Assembly (NCBI GenBank): GCA_946529215.1
Contig: CAMMZC010000004.1
Coordinates: 1,618 to 65,617, forward strand
Source of the DNA: an uncultured Clostridia bacterium
GTDB lineage: Bacteria > Bacillota > Clostridia > TANB77 > CAG-508
DNA: 64,000 nucleotides
Direction: 5' to 3'
The position numbers and the translations under genes are program-made. Positions within the stretch are counted from its first letter, which is position 1. Each line of letters opens with the position of its first letter. The notes beneath the pieces were generated by a model, which had not been told where the DNA came from, did no database searches, and saw nothing but the letters and a program-made list of their open reading frames with translations. Below, piece by piece: positions 19,346 to 58,810 of the stretch.

Positions 19346-19408
19346 GTTATTATAAAGTACACAATATACAATAATAATTACTAAATAATAACAAAGAAGG
19401 TGAAAGAT

Positions 19409-20053
19409 ATGAATATTTGTAAGACTGTTTTGGAGTGTATAGATCAATATCCTCAAGATGAACCAATATTTATTGAAGACATAAAAAGATATGTAATACA
19501 AAAGTGCAAAAATGAAGAAAAACAAAATGTTTCAAAAAATATAAATGTTATTTTAAATAGATTAAAAAACGAAGGTATTATTAGAGCAGAATATAAAGGT
19601 GTATATTATAAGCCTGTGTATACTATATTTGGAGAAATGGGGTTAGATACTAATAAATTAAGAAAACTAAAATATTTAGAAGATAGAGATGGGAATATAA
19701 AAGGTTATATAATAGGAGCAAAATTATTCAATATGCTTGGTTTAACAACTTTAGTACCCAATGTTACAGACATAGTTACAAATGAATGTAAGTATCATAA
19801 ACAATATGATGAAAAACTAAGAACCTATATAACAAAGCCTAAAATAGAAATAACAAATGAAAATTATAGGTACTTGCAGTTTATAGATATATTAGAAAAC
19901 AAAGATAATATTTATATTGAAGCTGATAATGCAAATGAAATTTTATATAGTATTATTGAAGAATGTAAATTAGATTTTGAAAAAATAATAAAATATGTTA
20001 GAGAAACAAATAGTAAAAATGTATTAGACAAGTTGTTAGTTCTAGCAAGATAG
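19409..20053 (+). CDS. abiEi: AbiEi-family antitoxin / transcriptional regulator (type IV toxin-antitoxin, abortive infection)
   Basis: About 215 aa. The central motif GYIIGAKLFNMLGLTTLVPN resembles the GY.sg.sAL..hGL AbiEi signature. It sits immediately upstream of a DUF1814 nucleotidyltransferase. ATG 19409 follows the RBS agaagg. The track ORF starts at GTG 19400. Confidence 0.6.
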   Translation: MNICKTVLECIDQYPQDEPIFIEDIKRYVIQKCKNEEKQNVSKNINVILNRLKNEGIIRAEYKGVYYKPVYTIFGEMGLDTNKLRKLKYLEDRDGNIKGYIIGAKLFNMLGLTTLVPNVTDIVTNECKYHKQYDEKLRTYITKPKIEITNENYRYLQFIDILENKDNIYIEADNANEILYSIIEECKLDFEKIIKYVRETNSKNVLDKLLVLAR

Positions 20054-20064
20054 GAGAACAGATA

Positions 20065-21021
20065 ATGCAATTTCATTTGAAAGAACAGGATTTTAAAAAA
20101 TTTATTAATGATATGAGCAAAAATATCAATATTGATGCAGACATAATCGAAAAGGACTATTATGTTTGTTCTGTATTAAAAGAATTAGCTGAAAAACAAG
20201 ATTATTTAAAAGCTTATTTTAAAGGTGGAACTGCTGTATATAAAATATTAGATACGATGAATAGATTTTCAGAAGATATTGATTTAACTGTTGAAGTAAT
20301 AAAAGAAGCTTCAAACAATAGCAATAAAACAAGATTAAAAAAATCTGCATTAGGATATAAAATACCTGGCTTAGAATTGGATAAAGATAAAACAAAAGAT
20401 GTTAAACAAAGTGTTACAGCATATTATAAATATAAATCTTTTTTTGAAAATGTAAAAAATCAGTTACATAAGGCAGGAGAAATACAAGTTGAAGCGACAT
20501 CATTTACAATTAGTGAACCTACAGAATTATATGTAATAGAACCTATTTTATATAAATATGCAAACGAAAGAGAAAGAGAGATTTTAGCAAAAGAATTTGA
20601 TATAAAACCTTTTGAAATAAAAGTTCAAAAATTAGAAAGAATCTTTATAGACAAGCTATTTGCAGCTGAACTATATTTTGAAAAGCAAATGTATATTGAT
20701 TTATCAAAACATTTATATGACTTAACTATATTGTTTAAAACAAAGAGGATACAAGATTTTTTACACAATAAAAAAGAGTATTTAAAAATTGTTAATTATA
20801 AAAGAGAAGAAGAAATCTATAGAAAAGGTGGAGTAGATAGAAAAAATAAAATTAAAGATTTTGGCTACTTTGATATGGAATATAATGATGATTTCTTAAA
20901 AGCCTTTAAATTAATGCAAGATAAGTATATTTTTAAAGATGAATATAGAATAACAATAGAAGATGTGAAAGAGGTGTTAAATGAAGTTAGAGAGTGGATA
21001 ATAAAATTAGAGAGGATGTAA
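20065..21021 (+). CDS. abiEii: AbiEii-family nucleotidyltransferase toxin (DUF1814)
   Basis: YFKGGTAVYKILDTMNRFSEDIDLTVEV matches the AbiEii KGGTAL...RFSEDxDxT nucleotidyltransferase motif. It starts 11 nt after the AbiEi stop. Confidence 0.75.
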   Translation: MQFHLKEQDFKKFINDMSKNINIDADIIEKDYYVCSVLKELAEKQDYLKAYFKGGTAVYKILDTMNRFSEDIDLTVEVIKEASNNSNKTRLKKSALGYKIPGLELDKDKTKDVKQSVTAYYKYKSFFENVKNQLHKAGEIQVEATSFTISEPTELYVIEPILYKYANEREREILAKEFDIKPFEIKVQKLERIFIDKLFAAELYFEKQMYIDLSKHLYDLTILFKTKRIQDFLHNKKEYLKIVNYKREEEIYRKGGVDRKNKIKDFGYFDMEYNDDFLKAFKLMQDKYIFKDEYRITIEDVKEVLNEVREWIIKLERM

Positions 21022-23754: not shown

Positions 23755-23961
23755 ATGGACGAGTATATTTGTAAAATAGCAACACTTGAAGAAATGGAAA
23801 AGAATTGGAATTATTTAATTGAAGTACATCCAAATAATAACGCATGGAAAATTTATAAAGAGGAAGCTATAAAAAATATGAAAGAGAAAAACACCATAGT
23901 ATACTATGGGATTTTAAATGGAACTATTATGCTAATCAAATATTTAATGGCATTATATTGA
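23755..23961 (+). CDS. Hypothetical small protein (68 aa)
   Basis: Its start abuts the previous stop (taaATG). No family recognised. Confidence 0.3.
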   Translation: MDEYICKIATLEEMEKNWNYLIEVHPNNNAWKIYKEEAIKNMKEKNTIVYYGILNGTIMLIKYLMALY

Positions 23962-24071
23962 TATTTGAGATATAGAATGGAAAGAGAATATTAAAGGGAA
24001 AAATTGAGGTATGGTATTATTTTAAGAAAGACAATTAACAACAAAATAGAATTATGTGAATCGAAAGAGGC

Positions 24072-24100
24072 TTGACATTAGTTGACATAAATGATATAAT
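24072..24100 (+). promoter_or_regulatory. Consensus sigma-A promoter (TTGACA-N17-TATAAT) upstream of the tandem-Nudix gene
   Basis: ttgaca at 24072-77, a 17-nt spacer, tataat at 24095-24100. Confidence 0.5.
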
Positions 24101-24146
24101 ACTTTTGGAAATTTATTTACATCAAATATAAAATGGAGGTACTCAT

Positions 24147-25367
24147 ATGTCTAATCAATTAGATGATTTTTTGAAAGAATATAAAAGTAAAGAAATCGGA
24201 AAAGCAGAGATAGGTAAAAGCTCTGACGGATTAAATACACATAAAGTCAAGTTTCCAGATGGTACTATACAATATAGAGAATTTGTAAAAAAGAAACCAA
24301 CTGCAATTTTACTAGCTAAAACTAGGGATGGCCAAACAATTTGTATAGGGAAGACAGCTGCAAATTGTTCTGAAGGTGCGTTACTTAAACTTCCTTCAGT
24401 AGAGTTAGAAGAAGAGAACGAAGAAGCAATAAAAGTAGCTTTGAGAAAAATTTTGAAAGAGGTAGGTTTTGAAACTGGAGAAATCATTCCTATAGGTTTT
24501 CACTATCAAGATCCAGGGTTAAGTGGGGAAAGAGTATATGAGTATTGTGCGATTGATTGTTATCAGGTTTCAGAACCAGGATTAGCTAAGGAAAAGAATG
24601 AAAAGACAATTTTTTTATCTCAAGAAGATATAAAAAAAGCTATTATAAAAAATAAGTTACTTGATGCAAGTTCTTTAATTGTTTTGATGAGAACACTATT
24701 ATTAAATGAAAAAATTCAAAATGCAGAAGAAAAAGAAAATTATAAATTGGATGAGCTTTTAGAAAAGTGCAAATGTACACAATTAGGAGAAACACTATCA
24801 GGAGGAAGTTTTTATAAAATTATGGAACGTATGGTTCAACTACCTGATGGTACCAAACAGAAAACAGTATTTGTGAAAAAGAAACCTGCTGCAATAGTAC
24901 TAGCTATAACTACAAAAGGAGAAATAATTTCTATTGTTCAACCTATTGCCAATTGTCCTGAAGGTTCATTGCTTGAATTTCCAGCTGGCTATTTGGAGGA
25001 GACAGAAGAAGCTACAAAAGCGGCTTTGAGAGAACTTCTTGAAGAAACAGGATTTGAAACAAAAAAAGTTATTTCTTTAGGTTATCATTATCAAGATTCG
25101 GAATTAAATGGAGAAAGAGTATATGAGTATTGTGCAATTGATTGCAGTCAAGTTTCAGAACAGGTATTAGATAGGGGAGAATATATTAAAACAATTCTTT
25201 TATCACAAGAAGAAATAAAGAATGCTATTATCAGTGGCAAGTTACTTGATGCTAATTCTTTAATAGCTTTTATGAAAGTACTTTTATTAAATGAAAGAAT
25301 TAAAATTTTAGAAAATAGAAAAGGAGAACCAGATGGTGTATTACCCCACCAAAAAGGAGAACGTTAG
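24147..25367 (+). CDS. Tandem-Nudix protein (two NudF/ADP-ribose-pyrophosphatase-like domains; the first Nudix box is degenerate, the second intact)
   Basis: Clear internal duplication of ~190 aa (DGTIQYREFVKKKPTAILLAKTRDGQ... and DGTKQKTVFVKKKPAAIVLAITTKGE...). The second repeat has a canonical Nudix box, GYLEETEEATKAALRELLEETGF (GX5EX7REUXEEXGU). The first has SVELEEENEEAIKVALRKILKEVGF, lacking the G and the REx2EE residues. Confidence 0.7.
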   Translation: MSNQLDDFLKEYKSKEIGKAEIGKSSDGLNTHKVKFPDGTIQYREFVKKKPTAILLAKTRDGQTICIGKTAANCSEGALLKLPSVELEEENEEAIKVALRKILKEVGFETGEIIPIGFHYQDPGLSGERVYEYCAIDCYQVSEPGLAKEKNEKTIFLSQEDIKKAIIKNKLLDASSLIVLMRTLLLNEKIQNAEEKENYKLDELLEKCKCTQLGETLSGGSFYKIMERMVQLPDGTKQKTVFVKKKPAAIVLAITTKGEIISIVQPIANCPEGSLLEFPAGYLEETEEATKAALRELLEETGFETKKVISLGYHYQDSELNGERVYEYCAIDCSQVSEQVLDRGEYIKTILLSQEEIKNAIISGKLLDANSLIAFMKVLLLNERIKILENRKGEPDGVLPHQKGER

Positions 25368-25445
25368 ATTAATAATGGGAGTTATAAGTATTATTTAAAA
25401 ATATAATTAAATAGGGATAAAAAAAAATTAGAGATTTATGTAAAT

Positions 25446-25474
25446 TTGACAAAACTAAAATAATATGTTAAAAT
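25446..25474 (+). promoter_or_regulatory. Sigma-A promoter (TTGACA-N17-TAAAAT) for the GNAT / ABC-2 gene cluster
   Basis: ttgaca at 25446-51, a 17-nt spacer, taaaat at 25469-74. A ~150-nt untranslated leader follows. Confidence 0.55.
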
Positions 25475-25579
25475 AGAAAACATAATTTAAGAGTTTATCT
25501 AGGATTGCCTAAATCCGAGCGATAAAGGACAATTATAATAGAGATTGTTTACACGATGTAAGATATATAAAAAGTCTTG

Positions 25580-25620
25580 CAAAGGAGTCTTAAAAGATTC
25601 TTTTGTGAGGCTTATTTTTT
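25580..25620 (+). promoter_or_regulatory. Leader hairpin (12-bp stem with two G-U pairs) followed by a U-tract; possible attenuator or riboregulatory element
   Basis: caaaggagtctt-aaa-agattcttttg, then tgaggcttatttttt, just upstream of the first GNAT start (GTG 25634). Confidence 0.3.
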
Positions 25621-25633
25621 ATTATAAGGGGAA

Positions 25634-26161
25634 GTGATTGAATTGGATATTATAATCAGAACAGCGACAATTAATGATGCTGAAAAGGTTGCAAAAATCA
25701 AAATAGAAGGTTGGCAAACAGCATATAGAGGTATTATAGATGATGAATTTCTTGATAATATGAACTTAAATGAAGAAATAGAGAAAAGAAAAGATAATAT
25801 AAAAGATGGTGAAGATATTATTGTAGCAGAATTTAACAATGAAATTGTAGGATTCTGTTTATATAGAAATTACATTAAAGATCCTGAAAGCTATCCTAAT
25901 GCAGATTGTGAAATATCATCTCTTTATGTAAAAAGTTCATTAAAAAGAAAAGGAATAGGCACAAAATTAATGCAATATGTAATTCAAAAACTACAAAATC
26001 AAGGAAAAACTAAAATGATTTTAGGTTGCTTAAAAGGAAACTATCCTTCAAGAGCTTTCTATGAAAAAATGGGAGGAAAACTTTTAAAAAAAGAAAAAAT
26101 TACATTTGGAAATAAAGAATATGAAGAAGTAATATATGAATATGATATTGCTAAAATGTAA
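25634..26161 (+). CDS. GNAT family N-acetyltransferase
   Basis: GTG start after the RBS aaggggaag. GNAT motif A: VKSSLKRKGIGTKLMQYVIQK. Confidence 0.75.
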   Translation: MIELDIIIRTATINDAEKVAKIKIEGWQTAYRGIIDDEFLDNMNLNEEIEKRKDNIKDGEDIIVAEFNNEIVGFCLYRNYIKDPESYPNADCEISSLYVKSSLKRKGIGTKLMQYVIQKLQNQGKTKMILGCLKGNYPSRAFYEKMGGKLLKKEKITFGNKEYEEVIYEYDIAKM

Positions 26162-26182
26162 AAATGAAGGGAATGAAAATAT

Positions 26183-26599
26183 ATGGATTATAAAATTGAA
26201 AATAATATAACTCCAGAAGAATATAATGAATTAAGAAATTCGGTAGGCTGGGATTCAAAAGAAAAACATATAATACAAAACGCATTAGATAGTAGCGTTG
26301 TAGTAAAGAAAGTAATTTTTGAAAATAAAACAATAGGAATGGCTAGAGCAATTGGAGATGGATTATATTACCTAATTGTAGATGTTGTTGTTCATTCAGA
26401 TTATCAGAAAAAAGGTATAGGTAAATTATTAATAGAATCAATCGTTAAATATATAGAAGAACGTACTGAAATAGGACAAAAGTGCAGTATAAATTTAATA
26501 TCTATGAAAGGAAAAGAAAAATTTTACGAAAAATGTGGATTTAGAACAATACCTTTTGATTACACAGGGTATGGAATGACATTGAGAATTGAAAAGTAA
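26183..26599 (+). CDS. GNAT family N-acetyltransferase
   Basis: 138 aa. VHSDYQKKGIGKLLIESIVKYI is GNAT motif A. Confidence 0.75.
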   Translation: MDYKIENNITPEEYNELRNSVGWDSKEKHIIQNALDSSVVVKKVIFENKTIGMARAIGDGLYYLIVDVVVHSDYQKKGIGKLLIESIVKYIEERTEIGQKCSINLISMKGKEKFYEKCGFRTIPFDYTGYGMTLRIEK

Positions 26600-26613
26600 G
26601 GAGTGAGTAATTA

Positions 26614-27171
26614 ATGGAAATTAAAAGTAAAAGACTTATTTTAAGAAATTGGGAAGATGGAGATGTAAATGATATAGTAGAAGGATTAAATAATATAGAG
26701 GTTGCAAAATGGTTGGCTAGTGTTCCTTATCCATATACTGAAAATGATGCTAGAAATTTTATTGAAAGAGCTAAGAATAATGATGAAAATGTAAAAATAG
26801 CATTAGCAATTGTTTTAAAAGAAAGCAATAAAGTAATCGGTGGTACAGAAATTAGAAATATCAATAAAAAAGATGGAACAGCAGGTGGTGGAATATGGCT
26901 TAATGAAAAATATCAAAAGAATGGTTATGGAACTGAGGCTTTCAGTAGCAGAAATAAATATTGTTTTGATGTTTTAGGTTTAAGAAGAATTGAAAATGGC
27001 TACTTTCCAGATAATGAAAAATCAAGAAAAATGCAGATGAAATTAGGTTATAAAGATGAGGGAATAAGAAGAAAGAAATTCCTATGTTTAGCAACAAATG
27101 AATATGTAGATGAATGTATAACAGGATTGTTGAAAGAAGAGTTTATAGAATGGAGTGATAAAAATGTATAA
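26614..27171 (+). CDS. GNAT family N-acetyltransferase (RimJ/RimL-like)
   Basis: 185 aa. LNEKYQKNGYGTEAF plus the RimL-like layout (MEIKSKRLILRNWEDGD...). Confidence 0.7.
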   Translation: MEIKSKRLILRNWEDGDVNDIVEGLNNIEVAKWLASVPYPYTENDARNFIERAKNNDENVKIALAIVLKESNKVIGGTEIRNINKKDGTAGGGIWLNEKYQKNGYGTEAFSSRNKYCFDVLGLRRIENGYFPDNEKSRKMQMKLGYKDEGIRRKKFLCLATNEYVDECITGLLKEEFIEWSDKNV

Positions 27172-28012
27172 GAAAATAGAACCTAATAATAAAATTTTTG
27201 AAAATGCTGAATATCAAAAAGATAAATATAAATTTAATATTGTATCTAAAATTTTAGCAGGAGAAGAAGTATTACTATATAGTGATGAACAAAATTACTT
27301 TTTAGCAAGAAACAAAGTAGGAATGCCAACATGGATTTGGACAAAAGATGGATTAGAAGATAAACAAATACTTGAAGAAATAAAAGAAGCAATGAAATTA
27401 TTTTTAACAGATTTAGATTGTGATCAATTTACTTGTAAAAAAGAATATTATAATTATCTAATGCAAACTAGTTATGATAAACTTAATAATGAAGATTACT
27501 TTGAGTTAGGATTTTTAACTTGTAATAAAGTGAAAAGCGTAAAACAAACAGACGGAAAGATGATGATGTGTACAAAAGAAGATTACGAAACTCTTTTGAG
27601 TCTTTTTGTACAATTTACTGAATTTATGAATAAAACAACAAATAATAATAGTAAAGCCAATATAGAAGAATTAAAAGAAGAAATGAATAGTCAAATAGAA
27701 CAAAATCACTTATTTTGTTGGAAAAATAAGGAAGAAAAAATAGTTTGCATTGCAAATTTTCAGGTGTTGGGAGATACTGCTAGAATAGGGCATGTTTTCA
27801 CATTAGAAGAAGAAAGAGGAAAAGGTTATGCTGCTAATTTGGTTCATGATTTAACAGAAAGATTATTAAATGAAGGATTACAGCCACTATTATATACAGA
27901 TTATAATTATCCGGCATCTAATAAAGCATATATTAATGCAGGATATGAAGATAAAGGAATACTAGTTAATTTTAGCTGTAGTAGAGAAAAAAGAAAAGTG
28001 AAACAGAAATAG
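27164..28012 (+). CDS. Two-domain protein with a C-terminal GNAT acetyltransferase domain
   Basis: The C-terminal part, GHVFTLEEERGKGYAANLVHDLTERLL, is GNAT motif A. Its start overlaps the previous stop (ATG 27164, or GTG 27155). Confidence 0.6.
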   Translation: MYKKIEPNNKIFENAEYQKDKYKFNIVSKILAGEEVLLYSDEQNYFLARNKVGMPTWIWTKDGLEDKQILEEIKEAMKLFLTDLDCDQFTCKKEYYNYLMQTSYDKLNNEDYFELGFLTCNKVKSVKQTDGKMMMCTKEDYETLLSLFVQFTEFMNKTTNNNSKANIEELKEEMNSQIEQNHLFCWKNKEEKIVCIANFQVLGDTARIGHVFTLEEERGKGYAANLVHDLTERLLNEGLQPLLYTDYNYPASNKAYINAGYEDKGILVNFSCSREKRKVKQK

Positions 28013-28082
28013 TTTTATAAAAGGAATTTTGGACAAAAGAACCGTCCCTTTGTCCACTTTGTCTAGGGAGGAAGTGATTAAA

Positions 28083-29063
28083 TTGAATATTATAGAAGTA
28101 AACAATCTTTCAAAAGATTATAAATACAAAGTAAAAAACAAAGAAAGAGGATTTTTATACAATCTATTTAATGAAAAAGAGAAAGTCGTAAAAGCTGTAG
28201 ATAATATTTCTTTTAATGTAGAAGCTGGAGAAACTGTTGCATTTATAGGACCAAATGGTGCAGGCAAATCAACTACTATTAAAATGCTAACAGGTATTTT
28301 GTATCCAACAGAAGGAAATATTAAAATATGTGGATGTACTCCAATAAAAGATAGAAATAAATTAGCTTACAATATTGGAACAGTATTTGGGCAAAGGAGT
28401 CAATTATTGCCAAACTTACCATTAACAGAAAGTATGGAAATGTTTGGTGCTATGTATGATGTGAATAAATCTGCAATAAAAAATAGAATAGAGGATTTAT
28501 CAAAATTATTTGGTTTAGAAGATTTTATTCAGCAACCTGTCAGAAAACTTTCGCTAGGACAGAGAATGAGAGCAGAAATTGCAACTTCATTAATACATAG
28601 TCCAAAAATAATATTCCTAGATGAACCAACAATAGGACTAGATGTTGTTTCAAAAAAGAGTTTACGAGATTTACTACTAAAAATAAATAGAGAAGAAAAT
28701 GTAACTATATTTCTAACAAGTCATGATACAGAAGATATCCAAAGTATATGTGATAGATGCATAATAATAAATCACGGAAAAATAATTATTGATACTGCTA
28801 CAAATAATTTAATGAGTGAATATATAAAAAATAAAAATATAATAATAACTCCAAATGTTGAATTTAATGAATTCCCAGAGTTGAAAGAAGGAATGGAATA
28901 TGTCCAAAAAGATACTAACCAAATAAATGTAAGTGTAGATACAGAAAAAATAGATATCAAAGATGCTTTACGAGAATTGATTAAGACTCATGATATTGAT
29001 GATATAAACATAATAAACGAATCACTTGAAAGCATAATAAGGAGTATTTATGAAAAAAATTAA
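28083..29063 (+). CDS. ABC transporter ATP-binding protein (ABC-2 exporter type); start codon uncertain (TTG 28083, GTG 28074 or ATT 28077)
   Basis: Walker A (GPNGAGKST), signature (LSLGQRMRAEIATSL), Walker B (IIFLDEPTIGLD). The RBS agggagg lies at 28065-71. A hairpin, ggacaaa-N9-tttgtcc, lies at 28031-55 just upstream. Confidence 0.75.
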   Translation: MNIIEVNNLSKDYKYKVKNKERGFLYNLFNEKEKVVKAVDNISFNVEAGETVAFIGPNGAGKSTTIKMLTGILYPTEGNIKICGCTPIKDRNKLAYNIGTVFGQRSQLLPNLPLTESMEMFGAMYDVNKSAIKNRIEDLSKLFGLEDFIQQPVRKLSLGQRMRAEIATSLIHSPKIIFLDEPTIGLDVVSKKSLRDLLLKINREENVTIFLTSHDTEDIQSICDRCIIINHGKIIIDTATNNLMSEYIKNKNIIITPNVEFNEFPELKEGMEYVQKDTNQINVSVDTEKIDIKDALRELIKTHDIDDINIINESLESIIRSIYEKN

Positions 29064-29847
29064 GTATGCTTTTACAGTAATTAGAATTTTTATGAAAAAT
29101 CAAATACAAGATCGAACAAATTTAATATTAGATGTTTTCAATATGATTGCAAGATGTTTTATTGTGTTCTTGTTATATGCTTACATATTTGAATTAAATG
29201 GTGGTAGAATTAATGGAGTTGATTATAAAACAACAATGTGGAGTATGTTTATATATTTTTGTATTATGATTTTTAATGTTAGAAGATTAGACAATATAAT
29301 AATGACTGATGTAAGAAGCGGAAATGTTGAAATGTTTATGAATAAACCATCTAATTATCTTACAATAAGCTTTATGAATGTTATAGGAAAAGGCATTTTT
29401 TCATTTTTATTCATAAGCATATTAGGAAGTATTATTATGGCATTTGCTGTAGGTGTTCCAAATTTAAATTTACCTGTATTTATTCCTACATTTTTCATAG
29501 TATTAATTCTAGGCCAAATTTTAGGATTATTAGTGTATGGAATTATAGGTCTTATGGCATTTTTTATACAAGATATCAGACCTATCCATTGGATAGTTGA
29601 TAAAATTGTTATGATACTTGGGGGGAGTTATTTACCTATATCAATGTTTCCTAACTTTATGAAATTATTTGCATTTGTAAGTCCTTTTGGAGCAATAAAT
29701 TTTGCATCTAGCACTGTATATGAATCATGGAATAACGAATTTATTATTAGAATTGTTTTACAGCTTTTTTGGATAGTAGTATTTGGAATTTTATTAAGAT
29801 ATGTGTATAAAAAATCCAAAGAAAAAGCTATGATAAATGGAGGTTGA
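29050..29847 (+). CDS. ABC-2 family transporter permease
   Basis: 265 aa with 6 TM helices. Its start overlaps the ATPase stop. Confidence 0.6.
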   Translation: MKKIKYAFTVIRIFMKNQIQDRTNLILDVFNMIARCFIVFLLYAYIFELNGGRINGVDYKTTMWSMFIYFCIMIFNVRRLDNIIMTDVRSGNVEMFMNKPSNYLTISFMNVIGKGIFSFLFISILGSIIMAFAVGVPNLNLPVFIPTFFIVLILGQILGLLVYGIIGLMAFFIQDIRPIHWIVDKIVMILGGSYLPISMFPNFMKLFAFVSPFGAINFASSTVYESWNNEFIIRIVLQLFWIVVFGILLRYVYKKSKEKAMINGG

Positions 29848-29850
29848 TTT

Positions 29851-30642
29851 ATGAGAAGCATAAAGTTAGCTTTATTAAATATTAAGAAAAATATAAAAAA
29901 TGAAAAAGAATTAAAAAGTTCATTTATAATCTCAGTTGTAGGAATGATGTTAAACAATATAGCATTTTTAATTCTGTGGTATTATTTTGGAAAAACAGTA
30001 GGAGAATTAAATGGATGGAAACCAATGGATATATTTGGATTATATGGATTTTCTTGTACTAGCTTTGGAATAGTGGCTTCATTATTTTATGGATTGTTTG
30101 AGATACCAAACTATATAAGTACAGGTAATTTTGATAAATACTTATTAACACCCAAAAATATTCTTTTAAAAGTTTCAACATCAAAAATATCAACAAGTGC
30201 ATTTGGGGACTTATTATTTGGAATTACTTGTTTTATAATATTTTCAGTATATAGTAAAATATCTTTAATACAATTGATGTTAGCAATTTTTTTAATTATT
30301 ATATCATCAATAGTGTTTTACGCATTTTCACTAGTATGTATGAGTATCTCATTTTATCTAATGGATGGATATAATGTTTCTCAAGGCTTATATGGAATGT
30401 TTGTAAGCAATTCAATTTACCATGGAGGAGCATATACAGGGGTATTAAGAATTGTTTTTACTTTTGTAATGCCATCACTATTATTAGGTGCGATACCAGT
30501 TGAAATTATAAAAAATATATCTTTAAAAAGTATAATAATGATTGTATTATTAGCAATTTGCTGGTTGATTTTTTCAATTGGATTTTTTTATAAGTCATTA
30601 AAAAAATATGAAAGTAATAATTTATATGGATTTGGTGGATAA
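29851..30642 (+). CDS. ABC-2 family transporter permease
   Basis: 263 aa with 6 TM helices. It starts 3 nt after the previous gene. Confidence 0.6.
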   Translation: MRSIKLALLNIKKNIKNEKELKSSFIISVVGMMLNNIAFLILWYYFGKTVGELNGWKPMDIFGLYGFSCTSFGIVASLFYGLFEIPNYISTGNFDKYLLTPKNILLKVSTSKISTSAFGDLLFGITCFIIFSVYSKISLIQLMLAIFLIIISSIVFYAFSLVCMSISFYLMDGYNVSQGLYGMFVSNSIYHGGAYTGVLRIVFTFVMPSLLLGAIPVEIIKNISLKSIIMIVLLAICWLIFSIGFFYKSLKKYESNNLYGFGG

Positions 30643-30695
30643 TTGGACAAAGGTATGTTTCTTTTGTATAAAGAAAAAAAGGAGGTTGATCATAA

Positions 30696-31258
30696 TGAAA
30701 TATTTTAAAAAATTAATAGGAGAAAGAATATATTTATCTCCAATGAATATAGAAGATGCAGAAAAATATGTGGAATGGTTTTGTGATTTTAAAATGACAG
30801 ATGGAGTTGGAAAAAGCAGTAGCATTACAACAGTTCAATCAGAAATAGAGTGGATTGAAAATAATAATAAAAATGGTGATTTGAATTTTGCAATTGTTAA
30901 TTTAGAAAATGATGAACTAATAGGAAACTGCGGAATTATGCATATAAATCATAAAGATAGATGTGCAGAAGTAGGACTATTTATAGGAAATGAGGAAAAC
31001 AGAAATAAAGGATATGGAGCAGAAACTTTACAACTACTATTAGATTATGGTTTTAATTATTTAAACTTAAATAATATTCATCTTGGAGTTATGGCTTTTA
31101 ATGAGAGGGCTATAGCATGCTATAAAAAAGTTGGATTTAAAGAATATGGAAGAAGAAGAGAAAGCTATTTCTTAAATGGAAAATACTATGATCACGTTTT
31201 TATGGATATTCTTGCAAGAGAATTTGATGGAAGCTATATAAAAAATAAAAATGCATAA
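30696..31258 (+). CDS. GNAT family N-acetyltransferase (RimL-like)
   Basis: The RBS aggagg precedes ATG 30696 (MKYFKKLIGERIYL...). The track ORF starts upstream at 30608. Motif A: NEENRNKGYGAETLQLLLDYGF. Confidence 0.7.
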
Positions 31259-31341
31259 TTATACCTATTTTGAATACAATATAAATATCCGTAAAAAAAT
31301 TACGGCAAATATTGACAAATGCAAAACGAAGGAGTATAATT

Positions 31342-32472
31342 ATGATAGGTGATAATATGTTAGAAAAATTTAGTGTAAAGAATTATAAAAATTTTAAAGA
31401 TGAAATAACTATAGATTTCAAAGAAAAGCACGATTATCAATTTAACAAAAATTGTATAAAAGATGGAGTTTTAAATAAGGTCATAATATTTGGAAATAAT
31501 GGCGAAGGAAAGAGCAATATCGGATATGCAATATTCGATATTGTTGGAACATTAACAGATAAATATACTATTCCGCCACAAGCAAATGACTTTCTTAATG
31601 CAGATAGTGACTGCAAAGAAGCTGAGTTTTCATATACATTTAAATTTGGAGATATTATTGTACAATATAATTATAAAAAAAGTGAATTTAAAAAGATGAC
31701 ATTTGAAGAATTATATATTAACAATGAAAAAGTATATGAATATGATTTTGTAAAAAAGAGTTTTAATCATCAAAATATGAAAATGATTGAGGCTGAAACA
31801 TTAAATTTTGAATATTATGAAGCCAATATAGCTGTCCTAAGATATATTGCAAACAATACAACTCAAACAGATGAGTCAATAGTTAAGAAAATAATGCAAT
31901 TTGTAACTAGAATGTTATGGTTTAGATCATTAAGGGATAATAGTTTTATTGGAATGGAAATAGAGAATACAGATATAGCAGAATGGATTATATCGAACAA
32001 TTTAGTTAAAGAGTTTAATGAATTTTTAAGAGAAAATGCAAATTTGAATTTAAATGTAGGAAATGCGGAATTAATGGGAACTAAAAATACTAATATTTTA
32101 ATAGAAAAACATAAACATAGACCATTAGTGTTTAATAATGTTGCATCATCTGGAACTAATTCTCTATTATTGTATTTTTACTGGTATAAACATTTTAAAG
32201 ATGTTAAATTTCTATTTATAGACGAATTTGATGCATTTTATCATTTTGAATTGTCTAGAAATATCATAAAAAATTTGCTTAAATATGACAATATGCAAAC
32301 TATACTGACATCACATAACACCTATTTAGTGGATAATAATTTATTAAGACCAGATTGTTATTTTATATTAAAAGATGGAGCTTTGAAGTCATTTGCGGAT
32401 AGTACAGATAGAGAATTACGAGAAGGCCATAATCTAGAAAAAATGCTAAGACAAGGGGAATTTAATGGATAA
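31342..32472 (+). CDS. AAA_21/ABC-type ATPase, AbiLi/RloA-like, the ATPase of an OLD/PARIS/AbiL-type defense pair
   Basis: N-terminal FSVKNYKNFKD...KVIIFGNNGEGKSNIGYAIFDIVG (Walker A). The C-terminus has LFIDEFDAFYH (Walker B) and TSHN (D/H-loop). The RBS aaggag precedes ATG 31342. The track ORF starts at 31312. Confidence 0.65.
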   Translation: MIGDNMLEKFSVKNYKNFKDEITIDFKEKHDYQFNKNCIKDGVLNKVIIFGNNGEGKSNIGYAIFDIVGTLTDKYTIPPQANDFLNADSDCKEAEFSYTFKFGDIIVQYNYKKSEFKKMTFEELYINNEKVYEYDFVKKSFNHQNMKMIEAETLNFEYYEANIAVLRYIANNTTQTDESIVKKIMQFVTRMLWFRSLRDNSFIGMEIENTDIAEWIISNNLVKEFNEFLRENANLNLNVGNAELMGTKNTNILIEKHKHRPLVFNNVASSGTNSLLLYFYWYKHFKDVKFLFIDEFDAFYHFELSRNIIKNLLKYDNMQTILTSHNTYLVDNNLLRPDCYFILKDGALKSFADSTDRELREGHNLEKMLRQGEFNG

Positions 32473-33217
32473 AAAGAATTTGCTATTTATAACAGAAGGA
32501 GAAATCGATGAACCAAAGTTTATAGAAAAAATGTTAAAAAAATGCCTACCTAATGTAGAATATAATGTTTATTCGTATACTACAACTATACATACATTAG
32601 CAAGAAAACTATTTAGCAAAAATGGAGAGATTGATGAAGATTTGGATATTAAAGGTGTTTTAAAAGAAGAAGAAACTGATTTGTCTAAAAGACGAATATT
32701 AGAAAAAAGTTATACTGATATAATTTTAGTTTTTGACTTTGAGCCACATTGCGATTCTCCTGAATTTGAAAAAATAAAAAAGATGCTACAATACTTCACT
32801 GATTCATCAAATATGGGAAAGCTATATATTAATTATCCTATGATGCAATCATATAAACATTTAAAAAAAATGCCAGATAATGATTTTATGAATAGAAAAA
32901 TAGCAAGGCAAGATGCATCAAAATATAAAGATATAGTAAACGATGAAAGCTTTTACAAAAATTTAAGCAAATATAATTATCCAATTTTTATGGGAATAAT
33001 AGGTCATCATCTTATGAAAGCAAATTATATATTAAACAGAAAATATGAGTTAATGAGTAGGGATGAATTTATAAATTTGGATTACATTAAAATATATGAT
33101 AAAGAATGGAGGTCTAATAGAAAAGATGGTGTAGTAGATGTTCTAAATACTTTTGTATTTTTTATAGTTGAATATAATTCAACAAGAATGATAGAAAAAG
33201 TAAAAGAGTTTATGTGA
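32465..33217 (+). CDS. RloB-like / AbiLii-like Toprim-family protein, partner of the preceding ATPase
   Basis: It starts with an 8-nt overlap on the ATPase stop (ATGGATAA). The N-terminal LLFITEGEIDEPKFIEKML resembles the RloB signature (i.cEGktE..Yf), and the later ILVFDFE sits at the vvfDrD position. Confidence 0.55.
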   Translation: MDKKNLLFITEGEIDEPKFIEKMLKKCLPNVEYNVYSYTTTIHTLARKLFSKNGEIDEDLDIKGVLKEEETDLSKRRILEKSYTDIILVFDFEPHCDSPEFEKIKKMLQYFTDSSNMGKLYINYPMMQSYKHLKKMPDNDFMNRKIARQDASKYKDIVNDESFYKNLSKYNYPIFMGIIGHHLMKANYILNRKYELMSRDEFINLDYIKIYDKEWRSNRKDGVVDVLNTFVFFIVEYNSTRMIEKVKEFM

Positions 33218-56863: not shown

Positions 56864-58810
56864 ATGGATGATTTATTAGAAAGTGTATTAGATTATGTTA
56901 GATCAGATTACACAGATTATGCAATAATGATAAATGGAGAATGGGGTTCAGGAAAGACATATTTTTGGAATAATCAAATAAAAAGAAAAATAGAGTCATT
57001 AAGTTTAAATGGAAAGAGATATAAAACCATATATATGTCTTTGTATGGAATTTCTAACTTAGAAGAAATAAGCAAAAAAATTTTTATAGAAACAACTCAA
57101 CTTATGGACAAAGATTTAAGAAGATATATGCAAACACATGAGCATGACGGAATACCAGAATATGCAAAAACAAGCATAGATATGGCAAATCTTTTCGGAG
57201 TTTCAAAAAGTGGAGAGAAAATAGATTATGATGAATTTTTTGCTGTTACAGATAAAGTTTTATGTTTTGATGACCTAGAAAGAGCAAATGTTGATGTTAT
57301 AGACATTTTGGGTTATATTAATAACTTCGTTGAACATGATCATATGAAAACAATAATTATTTGTAATGAAAAAGAATTGGCAACAAAGATGAAAAGTGAA
57401 AATTTAGAAATGAAGACTTTTATTGCAACATATCTTTTAGATAAACAAGGTGAATTAAATAACAATGATTTACCTATGGTTGAGAAAATAAAAGATAGAA
57501 TAGAAAAAGTCTTTGAAAGAACAAATGATTATGAAAGAATTAAAGAAAAGCTTATAGGAGAAACTTTTGAATATGCACCCAAATTTGATTATATAATTAA
57601 TGGAATTCTTATGAGGTATGAATCTAATCCATCACTTTTAAAGTTTTTAAGAGAAAATTCAAGTTATATAATGGCAACATTTAAAAGAAGTGGTACGAGA
57701 AATCTACGTATTTTAAAACAAGCTTTAAATGATTTTAAAAAAATTTATGAGATGACGGAAAAGCTTTATCCAAATACTAATAGACGTGTAATGCAAACAA
57801 TGCTTATATTTACTATTGCGGCATCTTTTGAAATTAAAGCAGGAAAAATAACAAAAGAGAAATTTAAATATATAGAGGATAATGAAGAATATAAATCAAT
57901 TTTAGTTTCTTCAAGAGTTTTGATGGATAACAAACAATTTTATATAAAAGAATTTGATAGTAATTATTACTACAATTTTAAAGCAGAATATAGATTTTTT
58001 AAATTTATAGAGTACTATATTAGAACAAGAATTTTTGATATGAAACTATTTAAAAAAGATATGGAAGAAGCTGAACTTGCTTCAGGTGGTGAAAAAGATA
58101 TGCCTGCATACAAGAAAATTTTGGTGGAGGAATATTGGAAAATTCCTGATGACAAATTTTTTGATGTAGTGTATGAAGCTCTAGAAGACGTAAAAAAAGG
58201 AAAACTTCAGTTAATTGAAATTGCAAAATTATTTGTTTATTATATTTATTTTTACAATAATAATTTAATAAGCTATGATTTAAAAACATTAAAAGAAGAC
58301 TTTATAACAGGAATGAATATAGCAGTTGCACATTCAAGATATTTTCCAAATGTACGTGAAGAACTTGAAAAAATATCTATTTACAACAATTCTTCTGATG
58401 ATATAAATGATGTGGTAAGTAGTTTTAATCAACTTAATGATGAATTGCTTGAAAAAGAATATGAAATAAAAGCAGAAGAAATATTCAAAAACATTCCTAT
58501 GAAAATGGAACAATTTTATGAAAGATTTGATGCTGAATGTATGGATATACCAATCTTTAAATATTATGATCCATATCAAATTTTACAAAGAATTTCTTGT
58601 GCACCAAATGAAGATATAGTTATTATAAAAGAAAGAATGATAAAAAGAGCTAATCAACATCCAGAAGTATTAAAAGAAGAAATGAAAAATATGAATTCTT
58701 TAAAACGTATGATTACAGACTACTTAAAAGGCAAAGATACCACAATTAAAACTGTAATTATGAAAGGATTTGCAAAAGATTTAGAACAAATTATTGCTGA
58801 GGAAGACTAA
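56864..58810 (+). CDS. KAP-family P-loop NTPase
   Basis: N-terminal YAIMINGEWGSGKTYFWNNQI is the KAP Walker A (G.WGsGKS/T). A Walker B-like CFDDLER is also present. Length 648 aa. The RBS aaaggagag precedes the ATG. Confidence 0.7.
   Translation: MDDLLESVLDYVRSDYTDYAIMINGEWGSGKTYFWNNQIKRKIESLSLNGKRYKTIYMSLYGISNLEEISKKIFIETTQLMDKDLRRYMQTHEHDGIPEYAKTSIDMANLFGVSKSGEKIDYDEFFAVTDKVLCFDDLERANVDVIDILGYINNFVEHDHMKTIIICNEKELATKMKSENLEMKTFIATYLLDKQGELNNNDLPMVEKIKDRIEKVFERTNDYERIKEKLIGETFEYAPKFDYIINGILMRYESNPSLLKFLRENSSYIMATFKRSGTRNLRILKQALNDFKKIYEMTEKLYPNTNRRVMQTMLIFTIAASFEIKAGKITKEKFKYIEDNEEYKSILVSSRVLMDNKQFYIKEFDSNYYYNFKAEYRFFKFIEYYIRTRIFDMKLFKKDMEEAELASGGEKDMPAYKKILVEEYWKIPDDKFFDVVYEALEDVKKGKLQLIEIAKLFVYYIYFYNNNLISYDLKTLKEDFITGMNIAVAHSRYFPNVREELEKISIYNNSSDDINDVVSSFNQLNDELLEKEYEIKAEEIFKNIPMKMEQFYERFDAECMDIPIFKYYDPYQILQRISCAPNEDIVIIKERMIKRANQHPEVLKEEMKNMNSLKRMITDYLKGKDTTIKTVIMKGFAKDLEQIIAEED

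Follow-up and report, generated by a model that had tools for sequence, protein, structure and literature searches.

The 64,000-nt stretch of contig CAMMZC010000004.1 analysed here (the window, to which all positions refer unless a locus is named) comes from an uncultured Clostridia bacterium of the ruminant gut (to judge by >90% identical proteins labelled "Clostridia bacterium" and by sheep and ruminant sample names), whose closest GTDB representative is the goat-omasum metagenome-assembled genome RGIG2666 (locus L014). It carries a gene for a 406-residue protein in which two modules of the NudF/ADPRase type of Nudix hydrolases follow one another in a single chain (Table 1). An earlier reading of the same letters, hereafter the original prediction, held that two NudF-like repeats are fused here and that the gene has its own consensus promoter, and both statements are borne out: the N-terminal and C-terminal halves (N-half and C-half) are 54% identical over 188 aligned residues (BLASTP of residues 1-195 against 196-406, E 6e-65), and the sigma-70-type promoter matches the consensus at 12 of 12 positions. 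This promoter is kept in the orthologous loci L003, L004 and L005, and the homology between loci starts at its –35 element; the ribosome-binding site is conserved as well. The duplication can be recognised at the nucleotide level as well, where a repeat inside the gene shows 77% identity over 300 nt and 73% over 140 nt, with a spacing of 585-588 nt.

Table 1. Features of the tandem-Nudix gene and its immediate surroundings in the window
Feature	Position	Strand	Remarks
68-residue open reading frame, N-terminal remnant of a 344-residue GNAT/AAA_33 gene	23755..23961	+	tblastn 76% over 59 residues to L007 16320-16496
Cassette of ~1.44 kb, promoter and tandem-Nudix gene	23997..25435	+	missing at the syntenic position in the closest relatives
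Sigma-70-type promoter of the tandem-Nudix gene	24072..24100	+	TTGACA-17 nt-TATAAT, TG upstream of the –10 element
Ribosome-binding site GGAGG	24135..24139	+	7 nt 5' of the ATG; read from the sequence
Tandem NudF/ADPRase-like Nudix open reading frame, 406 residues	24147..25367	+	reading of the frame, BLASTP between halves, Pfam, NCBIfam
N-half, residues 1-198	24147..24740	+	putative catalytically dead Nudix module, retaining elements that would be lent to the partner site
R44-E45, N-half strand β3	24276..24281	+	equivalent to R37'/E38' of Bd-NDPSase; RE kept in all N-halves
Degenerate N-half Nudix box, V85..F108	24399..24470	+	G to V85, RE to RK101, EE to K104-E105, one-residue insertion
P123-G124, N-half loop L8	24513..24518	+	equivalent to the G115' region of Bd-NDPSase; the Pro is the ADPRase-predictive proline
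K150, N-half, in place of the catalytic/metal-binding Glu of L9	24594..24596	+	E in 122/125 of the family; K in all N-halves
C-half, residues 199-406	24741..25364	+	intact Nudix module
Intact C-half Nudix box, G281 YLEETEEATKAALRELLEETG F303	24987..25055	+	exact fit to GX5EX7REUXEEXGU
E345, catalytic Glu of C-half loop L9	25179..25181	+	equivalent to E140 of Bd-NDPSase; E in all C-halves
Downstream promoter (25446-25474), conserved leader, terminator-like hairpin (25572-25613 and T-run)	25446..25633	+	5' of the conserved GNAT neighbour; outside the Nudix protein, inside the conserved unit

In the full-length protein the Pfam profile NUDIX (PF00293) matches residues 245-357 only (E 1e-13, 51.7 bits for a cut-off of 21.1); the C-half fragment alone (residues 196-406) is matched with E 2.4e-11, and the N-half alone has no Pfam match. 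The nearest NCBIfam models of both halves are YffH/AdpP, NudE and ADP-ribose diphosphatase, all below their trusted cut-offs, and TIGR00052 (YffH/AdpP) scores best when the query is the whole protein or the N-half, whose similarity to it is weak, but not when it is the C-half alone. On the sequence evidence the product is a double Nudix-domain protein, whose single chain holds two homologous modules, each having the other as its closest relative.

The Nudix box of the C-half, GYLEETEEATKAALRELLEETGF, follows the signature GX5EX7REUXEEXGU without deviation, as had been claimed for the second repeat. The box of the N-half, VELEEENEEAIKVALRKILKEVGF, retains E92, R100, E/D105 and G107 and shows the same degeneracy in all four known orthologues; it lacks the invariant Gly and the Glu residues of the REx2EE motif (V85, K101, K104), in agreement with the original prediction. 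An additional loss in the N-half concerns the catalytic Glu of loop L9, which is 98% conserved in the family (E140 in the Bdellovibrio enzyme Bd3179, E162 in the E. coli enzyme). A functional box shifted in register within the first repeat, which the prediction had named as a finding that would undo it, was looked for in the alignment of the 125-member family, and none was seen. Four Glu-to-Lys changes (K81, K101, K104 and K150) are conserved, or nearly so, around the degenerate site.

The enzyme family of Bd3179 is made of domain-swapped homodimers with two catalytic cavities, and in Bd3179 the opposite monomer gives 46% of the buried ADP-ribose surface (PMC4629899). The base is sandwiched between Y19 and R37', contributed by the same and by the other chain respectively, and main-chain hydrogen bonds reach it from E38' and G115', again of the other chain; L1, L8' and β3' have been termed the "nucleoside recognition module" (PMC4629899). 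Mg2+ is bound by the glutamates of the box and by E140 on loop L9, while R64 orients the β-phosphate (PMC4629899). With this architecture as a guide, the eight halves of the four tandem orthologues were aligned with 125 single-domain relatives from an exhaustive representative search, and each position was scored as serving the site of its own box (cis) or that of the partner (trans) (Table 2). The N-half has lost 5/5 cis positions and kept 4/4 trans positions, and the C-half shows the exact opposite. This reciprocal pattern is common to the four orthologues with one exception, a Tyr at the L1 position of the N-half in the L005 protein; elsewhere the aromatic residue is lost and position 26 is S, T or H. 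Judged by these residues, only one of the two composite sites seems intact; the other seems to have decayed, its nucleoside-recognition residues included.

Table 2. Residues of the composite site in the single-domain family and in the two halves
Position	Site served	Family	N-half	C-half
Box G1	cis	G 125/125	V85	G281
Box E16	cis	E 124/125	K101 (I in two orthologues)	E296
Box E19	cis	E 123/125	K104	E299
L9 Glu	cis	E 122/125	K150	E345
L1 aromatic	cis	F/Y/W 86/125	S26	F222
β3 Arg	trans	R 70/125	R44	T240 (I in others)
β3 Glu	trans	E/D 84/125	E45	V241 (Q in others)
L8 Pro	trans	P 41/125	P123	S318
L8 Gly	trans	G 80/125	G124	E319 (D in others)

An AlphaFold model of the supposed pseudo-dimer had been proposed as a check, and the AlphaFold2 model of the 406-residue chain is compact, with a mean predicted local distance difference test score of 81 and a predicted template modelling score (pTM) of 0.83; the order of strands and helices is equal in both halves. 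In Foldseek searches it matches whole swapped chains with E 9e-15 and a template modelling score (TM) of 0.78 across 170-180 of 180-182 target residues, and the probability of the match to Nudix structures is 1.00, as expected for the α/β/α Nudix fold. The top PDB sequence match of the C-half is the Bdellovibrio NudF/NDPSase 5c7q (E 8e-16); the best solved relatives by sequence are Bdellovibrio 5C7Q/5C7T, the Bacillus methanolicus ACT/ADPRase, Thermus Ndx2/Ndx4 and the ADPRases of E. coli, Klebsiella and M. tuberculosis, and the model matches the same set of structures. Strands of the N-terminal three-stranded β domain, which precedes the Nudix fold, are present in both halves; its R/E pair is found in the N-half only.

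Purifying selection maintains both halves, and for different reasons. The ratio of nonsynonymous to synonymous substitution rates (dN/dS) is well under 1 in both of them, at synonymous rates (dS) of up to ~0.7, with overall values of ~0.15 in the C-half and 0.24-0.46 in the N-half; for the boxes, it is 0.17-0.35 in the N-half versus 0.014-0.10 in the C-half. Selection on single segments fits a reading by sites: in diverged pairs, the β element of the N-half (residues 28-60) has a dN/dS of 0.08 and the C-half box one of 0.014-0.04, whereas the degenerate N-half box (0.17-0.25) and the β element of the C-half (0.13-0.20) are both more relaxed. The C-half box is 93-100% identical among orthologues (100% between tandem protein T1 and T3/T4) despite dS of 0.3-1.2.

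The tandem protein amounts to four sequences over all searches. Among 5.8 billion proteins three were found, at 100, 80 and 76% identity, and 241 million metagenome records yielded one more, that of L005; a HMMER scan of 1.84 billion cluster representatives returned 4611 relatives, the top 150 of which included, as tandem proteins, only the protein's own cluster and one unrelated tandem. No relative was found among GTDB species representatives searched with the tandem alignment. A common housekeeping arrangement, the second finding that the prediction had said would undo it, can be set aside on these counts, and in a species-representative relative the corresponding locus is without the gene. 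The identical protein (P0001) is present in NCBI, JGI, ENA and Logan assemblies. In a neighbour-joining tree the N-halves and C-halves are sister groups, the former on a long branch, and the duplication is therefore specific to their own lineage.

A comparable event is represented by P0072 (MBU0976396.1; 383 residues, from a Patescibacteria metagenome-assembled genome), likewise a tandem NudF-like protein with sister halves (45% identical), which points to an independent duplication and fusion inside one and the same superfamily branch. As in the window protein, its N-half is the more degenerate in cis elements; unlike it (the two are only 24% identical), both boxes deviate, with E7 and R15 lost in both halves, and there is no clean reciprocal loss of trans elements. 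A further candidate of the representative search, the 3090-residue P0098 with 22 matched stretches, was rejected as spurious, being an unrelated T/D/G-rich repeat protein. The nearest single-Nudix relatives are fused to domains of ~150-170 residues that have no Pfam match, C-terminal in P0004/P0013 (locus L013) and N-terminal in P0005/P0006 (L012). P0004 adjoins a topoisomerase and a TrwB-like coupling protein, with the look of a conjugative element, and P0006 adjoins MazG, a 5'-3' exonuclease and a sigma-70 factor.

We consider it probable that the window protein is a monomeric, single-site, Mg2+-dependent nucleoside-diphosphate-X hydrolase, derived from a swapped dimer of the NudF/ADPRase type that was fused and then decayed reciprocally. 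A Nudix diphosphatase of this type would have undergone a lineage-specific duplication and head-to-tail fusion; its ancestral site would have consisted of the Nudix box, L1 and L9 of one chain together with β3 and L8 of the partner chain, and the fused halves are predicted to fold into the swapped-dimer arrangement inside one chain. After the fusion, one composite site would have been kept and the other would have decayed through complementary losses in both halves. The live site would comprise the C-half box (G281..G302), E345 and F222 with R44/E45 and P123/G124 of the N-half, and the dead site V85, K101, K104, K150 and S26 of the N-half with T240/V241 and S318/E319 of the C-half. The "pseudoenzyme" half may then act as scaffold and as trans-acting partner in nucleoside recognition, and not as a second ligand sensor.

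Several observations weigh against this reconstruction. The domain-swapped packing inside one chain is inferred from the pTM of 0.83, from homology (TM 0.78) and from the residue pattern, and the estimates of selection come from three effectively independent orthologues and are noisy. The score against TIGR00052, 41.4 bits, does not reach the trusted cut-off of 79.55. The Arg of the QYR motif (equivalent to Bd R64), present in 115/125 family members (92%), is replaced by A71 and I267; it is also absent from the clade relatives P0012 and P0014 and from P0004-6, which read QPIG/QPIA, and as the whole clade lacks it, activity and substrate may differ from those of classical ADPRases. Finally, the conserved changes to K81, K101, K104 and K150 can be read as a new basic pocket instead of simple decay, although they would most simply be charge compensation after the loss of Mg2+.

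The substrate is probably ADP-ribose-like, with the uncertainty that the absent QYR Arg brings. A Pro ~15 residues past the last Gly of the box marks ADPRases, and a DxK motif on helix α3 marks NDPSases (PMC4629899). The α3 motif of the window protein is DAS or DAN, not DxK, and the Pro is present in L8 of the N-half (P123), with S318 at this position in the C-half; this is a weak pointer to ADP-ribose, because the ADPRase proline would stand in the loop serving the live site and the motif of GDP-sugar enzymes is missing. A Nudix enzyme of the CoA type, suggested by the GNAT neighbours, was ruled out by eye: no NuCoA-like motif lies 5' of the box, and the profile matches are all of the ADPRase type.

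The most serious rival is the one favoured originally, a sensor plus a hydrolase, in which the N-half would bind an ADP-ribose-type ligand without hydrolysing it, as NrtR or the NUDT9-H domain of TRPM2 do, and would regulate the C-half. Non-catalytic Nudix ligand binders are known (PMC4974056, PMC5389931), the N-half is under purifying selection, the four residues named above persist in its box, and the Glu-to-Lys changes could make a metal-free phosphate-binding pocket. We nevertheless regard it as unlikely. The site of the N-half box lacks the L1 aromatic residue and, from the partner, the β3 R/E and L8 P/G pairs (now T/I, V/Q, S and E/D); the best conserved part of the N-half is the β element that would serve the other site, and the degenerate box is its most relaxed segment. 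Loss of catalytic and base-recognition residues from the same site argues against a domain that "would bind but not hydrolyse", and this part of the original prediction is not upheld. A ligand-sensing Nudix domain should combine a degenerate box with ligand residues retained in the same site, and such a combination is not present in this sequence. What survives of the proposed sensor-plus-hydrolase or pseudoenzyme-plus-enzyme arrangement is, at the level of domains, a pseudoenzyme half joined to an enzyme half.

A related reading keeps the decayed site in use in another form, as a metal-free pocket lined by K81, K101, K104 and K150 that would bind another phosphorylated ligand and gate the live site allosterically; we hold it to be somewhat less probable still. 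Were it true, the cassette would be a self-contained sensor-effector for a nucleotide signal or a toxic nucleotide; since the other members of the clade have conjugation-like or phage-like neighbours, conflicts with mobile elements or phages would be one possible context.

The genomic setting bears on the role of the protein. In blastn comparisons of the window with L014 and the near-identical contig L007, homology, with ~93% identity in the core, breaks off at 23996 and is regained at 25436, so that promoter and gene appear as a discrete cassette of ~1.44 kb. In L003 the cassette (window 24065-25467) lies elsewhere, after the fourth GNAT of a GNAT cluster, and in L004 after a MatE fragment. 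A GNAT/AAA_33-kinase fusion gene of 344 residues, intact in L007, has left in the window its N-terminal remnant (Table 1) and a 59-nt piece of its 3' end at 23938-23996; as read from the sequence, this remnant records a deletion or replacement at the left edge of the cassette. Flanking repeats or target-site duplications were looked for around the cassette, and none were found beyond the internal duplication of the gene and short AT-rich chance matches. The G+C fraction of the cassette (window 24000-25000) is ~0.29-0.31 versus 0.22-0.26 for the island, consistent with acquisition from elsewhere.

As originally described, the gene sits between an Abi module (AbiEi/AbiEii, 19400-21021) and a cluster of GNATs with an ABC-2 exporter (25634-31258), the exporter being DrrA-like. 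The proposed check of which neighbours are conserved gave GNATs and efflux genes, not defence genes: GNATs occur in every locus with a readable neighbour (the short L005 contig only begins one), and efflux genes (the DrrA-like ABC-2 exporter, MatE) recur less consistently. In every locus the gene is followed at its 3' side by the promoter of the next unit and, where the contig continues, by the leader of a 172-residue PaiA/ArsN1-like GNAT. The relative's version of the island carries an APH-like kinase, a HAD hydrolase and an MccF-like S66 peptidase, and the locus looks like a hotspot for small-molecule modification and resistance, not like a defence operon. Because a cassette with a strong promoter of its own travels in variable loci, rich in GNAT and efflux genes, among uncultured Clostridia of the rumen, its distribution suggests an accessory role in nucleotide detoxification or house-cleaning.

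This setting also makes a role in phage defence or counter-defence improbable, about as much so as the lysine-lined pocket. On that account the enzyme would degrade or generate signals derived from ADP-ribose, or restore or deplete NAD-related metabolites, together with defence genes nearby. AbiEi/AbiEii are 3 kb upstream and the candidate system PDC-M12A/B is 6 kb downstream, the gene forms an accessory cassette within a variable locus, the fused relatives P0004 and P0006 adjoin mobile-element-like genes, and Nudix enzymes figure in the literature on NAD and ADP-ribose conflicts. The link drawn in the original prediction is nevertheless not supported: neither AbiE nor PDC-M12 is adjacent to the gene in L003, L004 or L005, PDC-M12 and its flanking GNAT are also present in a relative without the Nudix gene, the sole PADLOC match of the protein is to the generic Nudix entry PDC-S07 (24.7 bits), no relative occurs among 2.9 million IMG/VR viral contigs, and the gene has its own promoter and, as its only conserved partner gene, a GNAT. 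A shared operon with AbiE was ruled out by an intervening ABC exporter, two small open reading frames, the gene remnant and the promoter.

A decaying duplicate on its way to a pseudogene, or an assembly artefact, which the extreme rarity of the protein, the faster evolution of the N-half and the adjoining gene remnant might suggest, is highly improbable given an intact frame of 405-408 residues that recurs in four or more independent assemblies made from different samples, dN/dS well below 1 in both halves, a conserved consensus promoter and ribosome-binding site and the near-invariant C-half box.

Other elements of the window and of the orthologous loci were noted in passing. The AbiEi/AbiEii pair (type IV toxin-antitoxin / abortive infection) is island cargo absent from L007/L014. 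At 31312-33217 PADLOC reports PDC-M12A (an AAA_21 ATPase, E 1e-121, also AbiLi-like) and PDC-M12B (E 2e-46), a candidate system, and at 56864-58810 a KAP-family P-loop NTPase as the candidate single-gene system PDC-S49 (E 2e-76). The segment 4918-15112 resembles a small biosynthetic cluster, with DUF3419, an unassigned 448-residue protein, a GNAT, an AMP-binding enzyme, a UbiA prenyltransferase and a 1421-residue protein with PPDK_N, PEP-utilizer, AMP-binding and PP-binding domains.

The GNAT gene downstream of the cassette has a near-consensus promoter (TTGACA-17-TAAAAT with TG) and a leader of ~150 nt, in which two small hairpins are followed by a terminator-like hairpin of ~20 bp and a T-run just 5' of the start. 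A comparison of four loci (L004 2200-2400, L005 1400-1580, L007 17365-17570 and the window) shows stronger conservation in the leader than in the coding DNA on its flanks; where the leaders differ, it is mostly in the loops of the hairpins, and compensatory pairs were not seen in these four. At gathering thresholds Rfam gives no family over the whole window, and the leader has chance-level matches only. By its sequence it could be an uncharacterised attenuator or riboswitch that controls the GNAT cluster. Only in the T3/T4 lineage are the Nudix cassette and the GNAT leader flanked by an intergenic repeat with the 16-nt core TTTGGGGAYNGRGCAA (~35 nt as judged by eye), with copies at L004 749-764, 2147-2162 and 2380-2395 and at L005 1324-1339 and 1558-1573; the window does not contain its core. 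The repeat may be an element peculiar to that lineage, either similar to repetitive extragenic palindromic sequences or serving recombination between cassettes.

Among known systems, the best match in sequence and fold is to the Bdellovibrio bacteriovorus NDP-sugar hydrolase Bd3179 (NudF; 5C7Q/5C7T) and the E. coli ADPRase NudF/YffH. Common to these enzymes and the window protein are a β domain N-terminal to the Nudix fold, the Nudix box, the Glu of L9, an aromatic residue in L1 and the β3 R/E pair, and their composite active-site logic would apply to it. They are homodimers of chains of ~180-210 residues with two equivalent sites, whereas the window protein is fused and keeps the residues at only one site; it also differs from them in lacking the QYR Arg in both halves and the DxK motif, and each of its halves has an extra N-terminal helix. 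Double MutT/Nudix proteins formed by independent duplication and fusion have already been described (Lin et al. 2009, J Genet Genomics 36:603), as cited in PMC5389931, a survey with seven two-Nudix proteins. They belong to the same architecture class, with two Nudix homology domains placed in one chain by a lineage-specific duplication and fusion. A search of the literature for a fused ADPRase-type pseudo-dimer, or for reciprocal decay of one composite site, found no description. The cases of Lin et al. 2009 are reportedly MutT-type domains (Deinococcus DR0004/DR0329, Drosophila) and not swapped dimers of the ADPRase type. Our protein is most likely a double-Nudix protein of the ADPRase family in which, to judge by its sequence, complementary decay of the sites followed the fusion of a homodimer.

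Like the N-half, NrtR, the NUDT9-H domain of TRPM2, DBC1 and Syndesmos/NUDT16L1 have a box without the catalytic Glu that is retained under selection. They keep binding of a ligand or partner of their own, whereas the putative dead site of the window protein is without base-recognition residues, and the residues retained in its degenerate half would serve the neighbouring live site. Heterodimers of paralogues with one live and one dead shared site are found in trypanosomatid deoxyhypusine synthase and in AdoMetDC/prozyme. The logic would be the same, that of an oligomer with sites at its interface whose duplicates undergo complementary degeneration until one composite site is left; these enzymes have unrelated folds and are separate polypeptides, while the window protein is one chain.

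Nothing suggests a new kind of system, although the substrate could point to an unrecognised nucleotide-detoxification activity. A monomeric, single-site enzyme of the ADPRase type could suit engineering, in that each half could be mutated without the other, an option that a homodimer does not offer. If the model holds, the protein would be a clean natural case of an obligate homodimer with shared sites fused into one chain, a caution against giving a dead-box domain the default label of "sensor", and the source of a rule for reading tandem Nudix proteins: that sites, and not domains, are to be judged.

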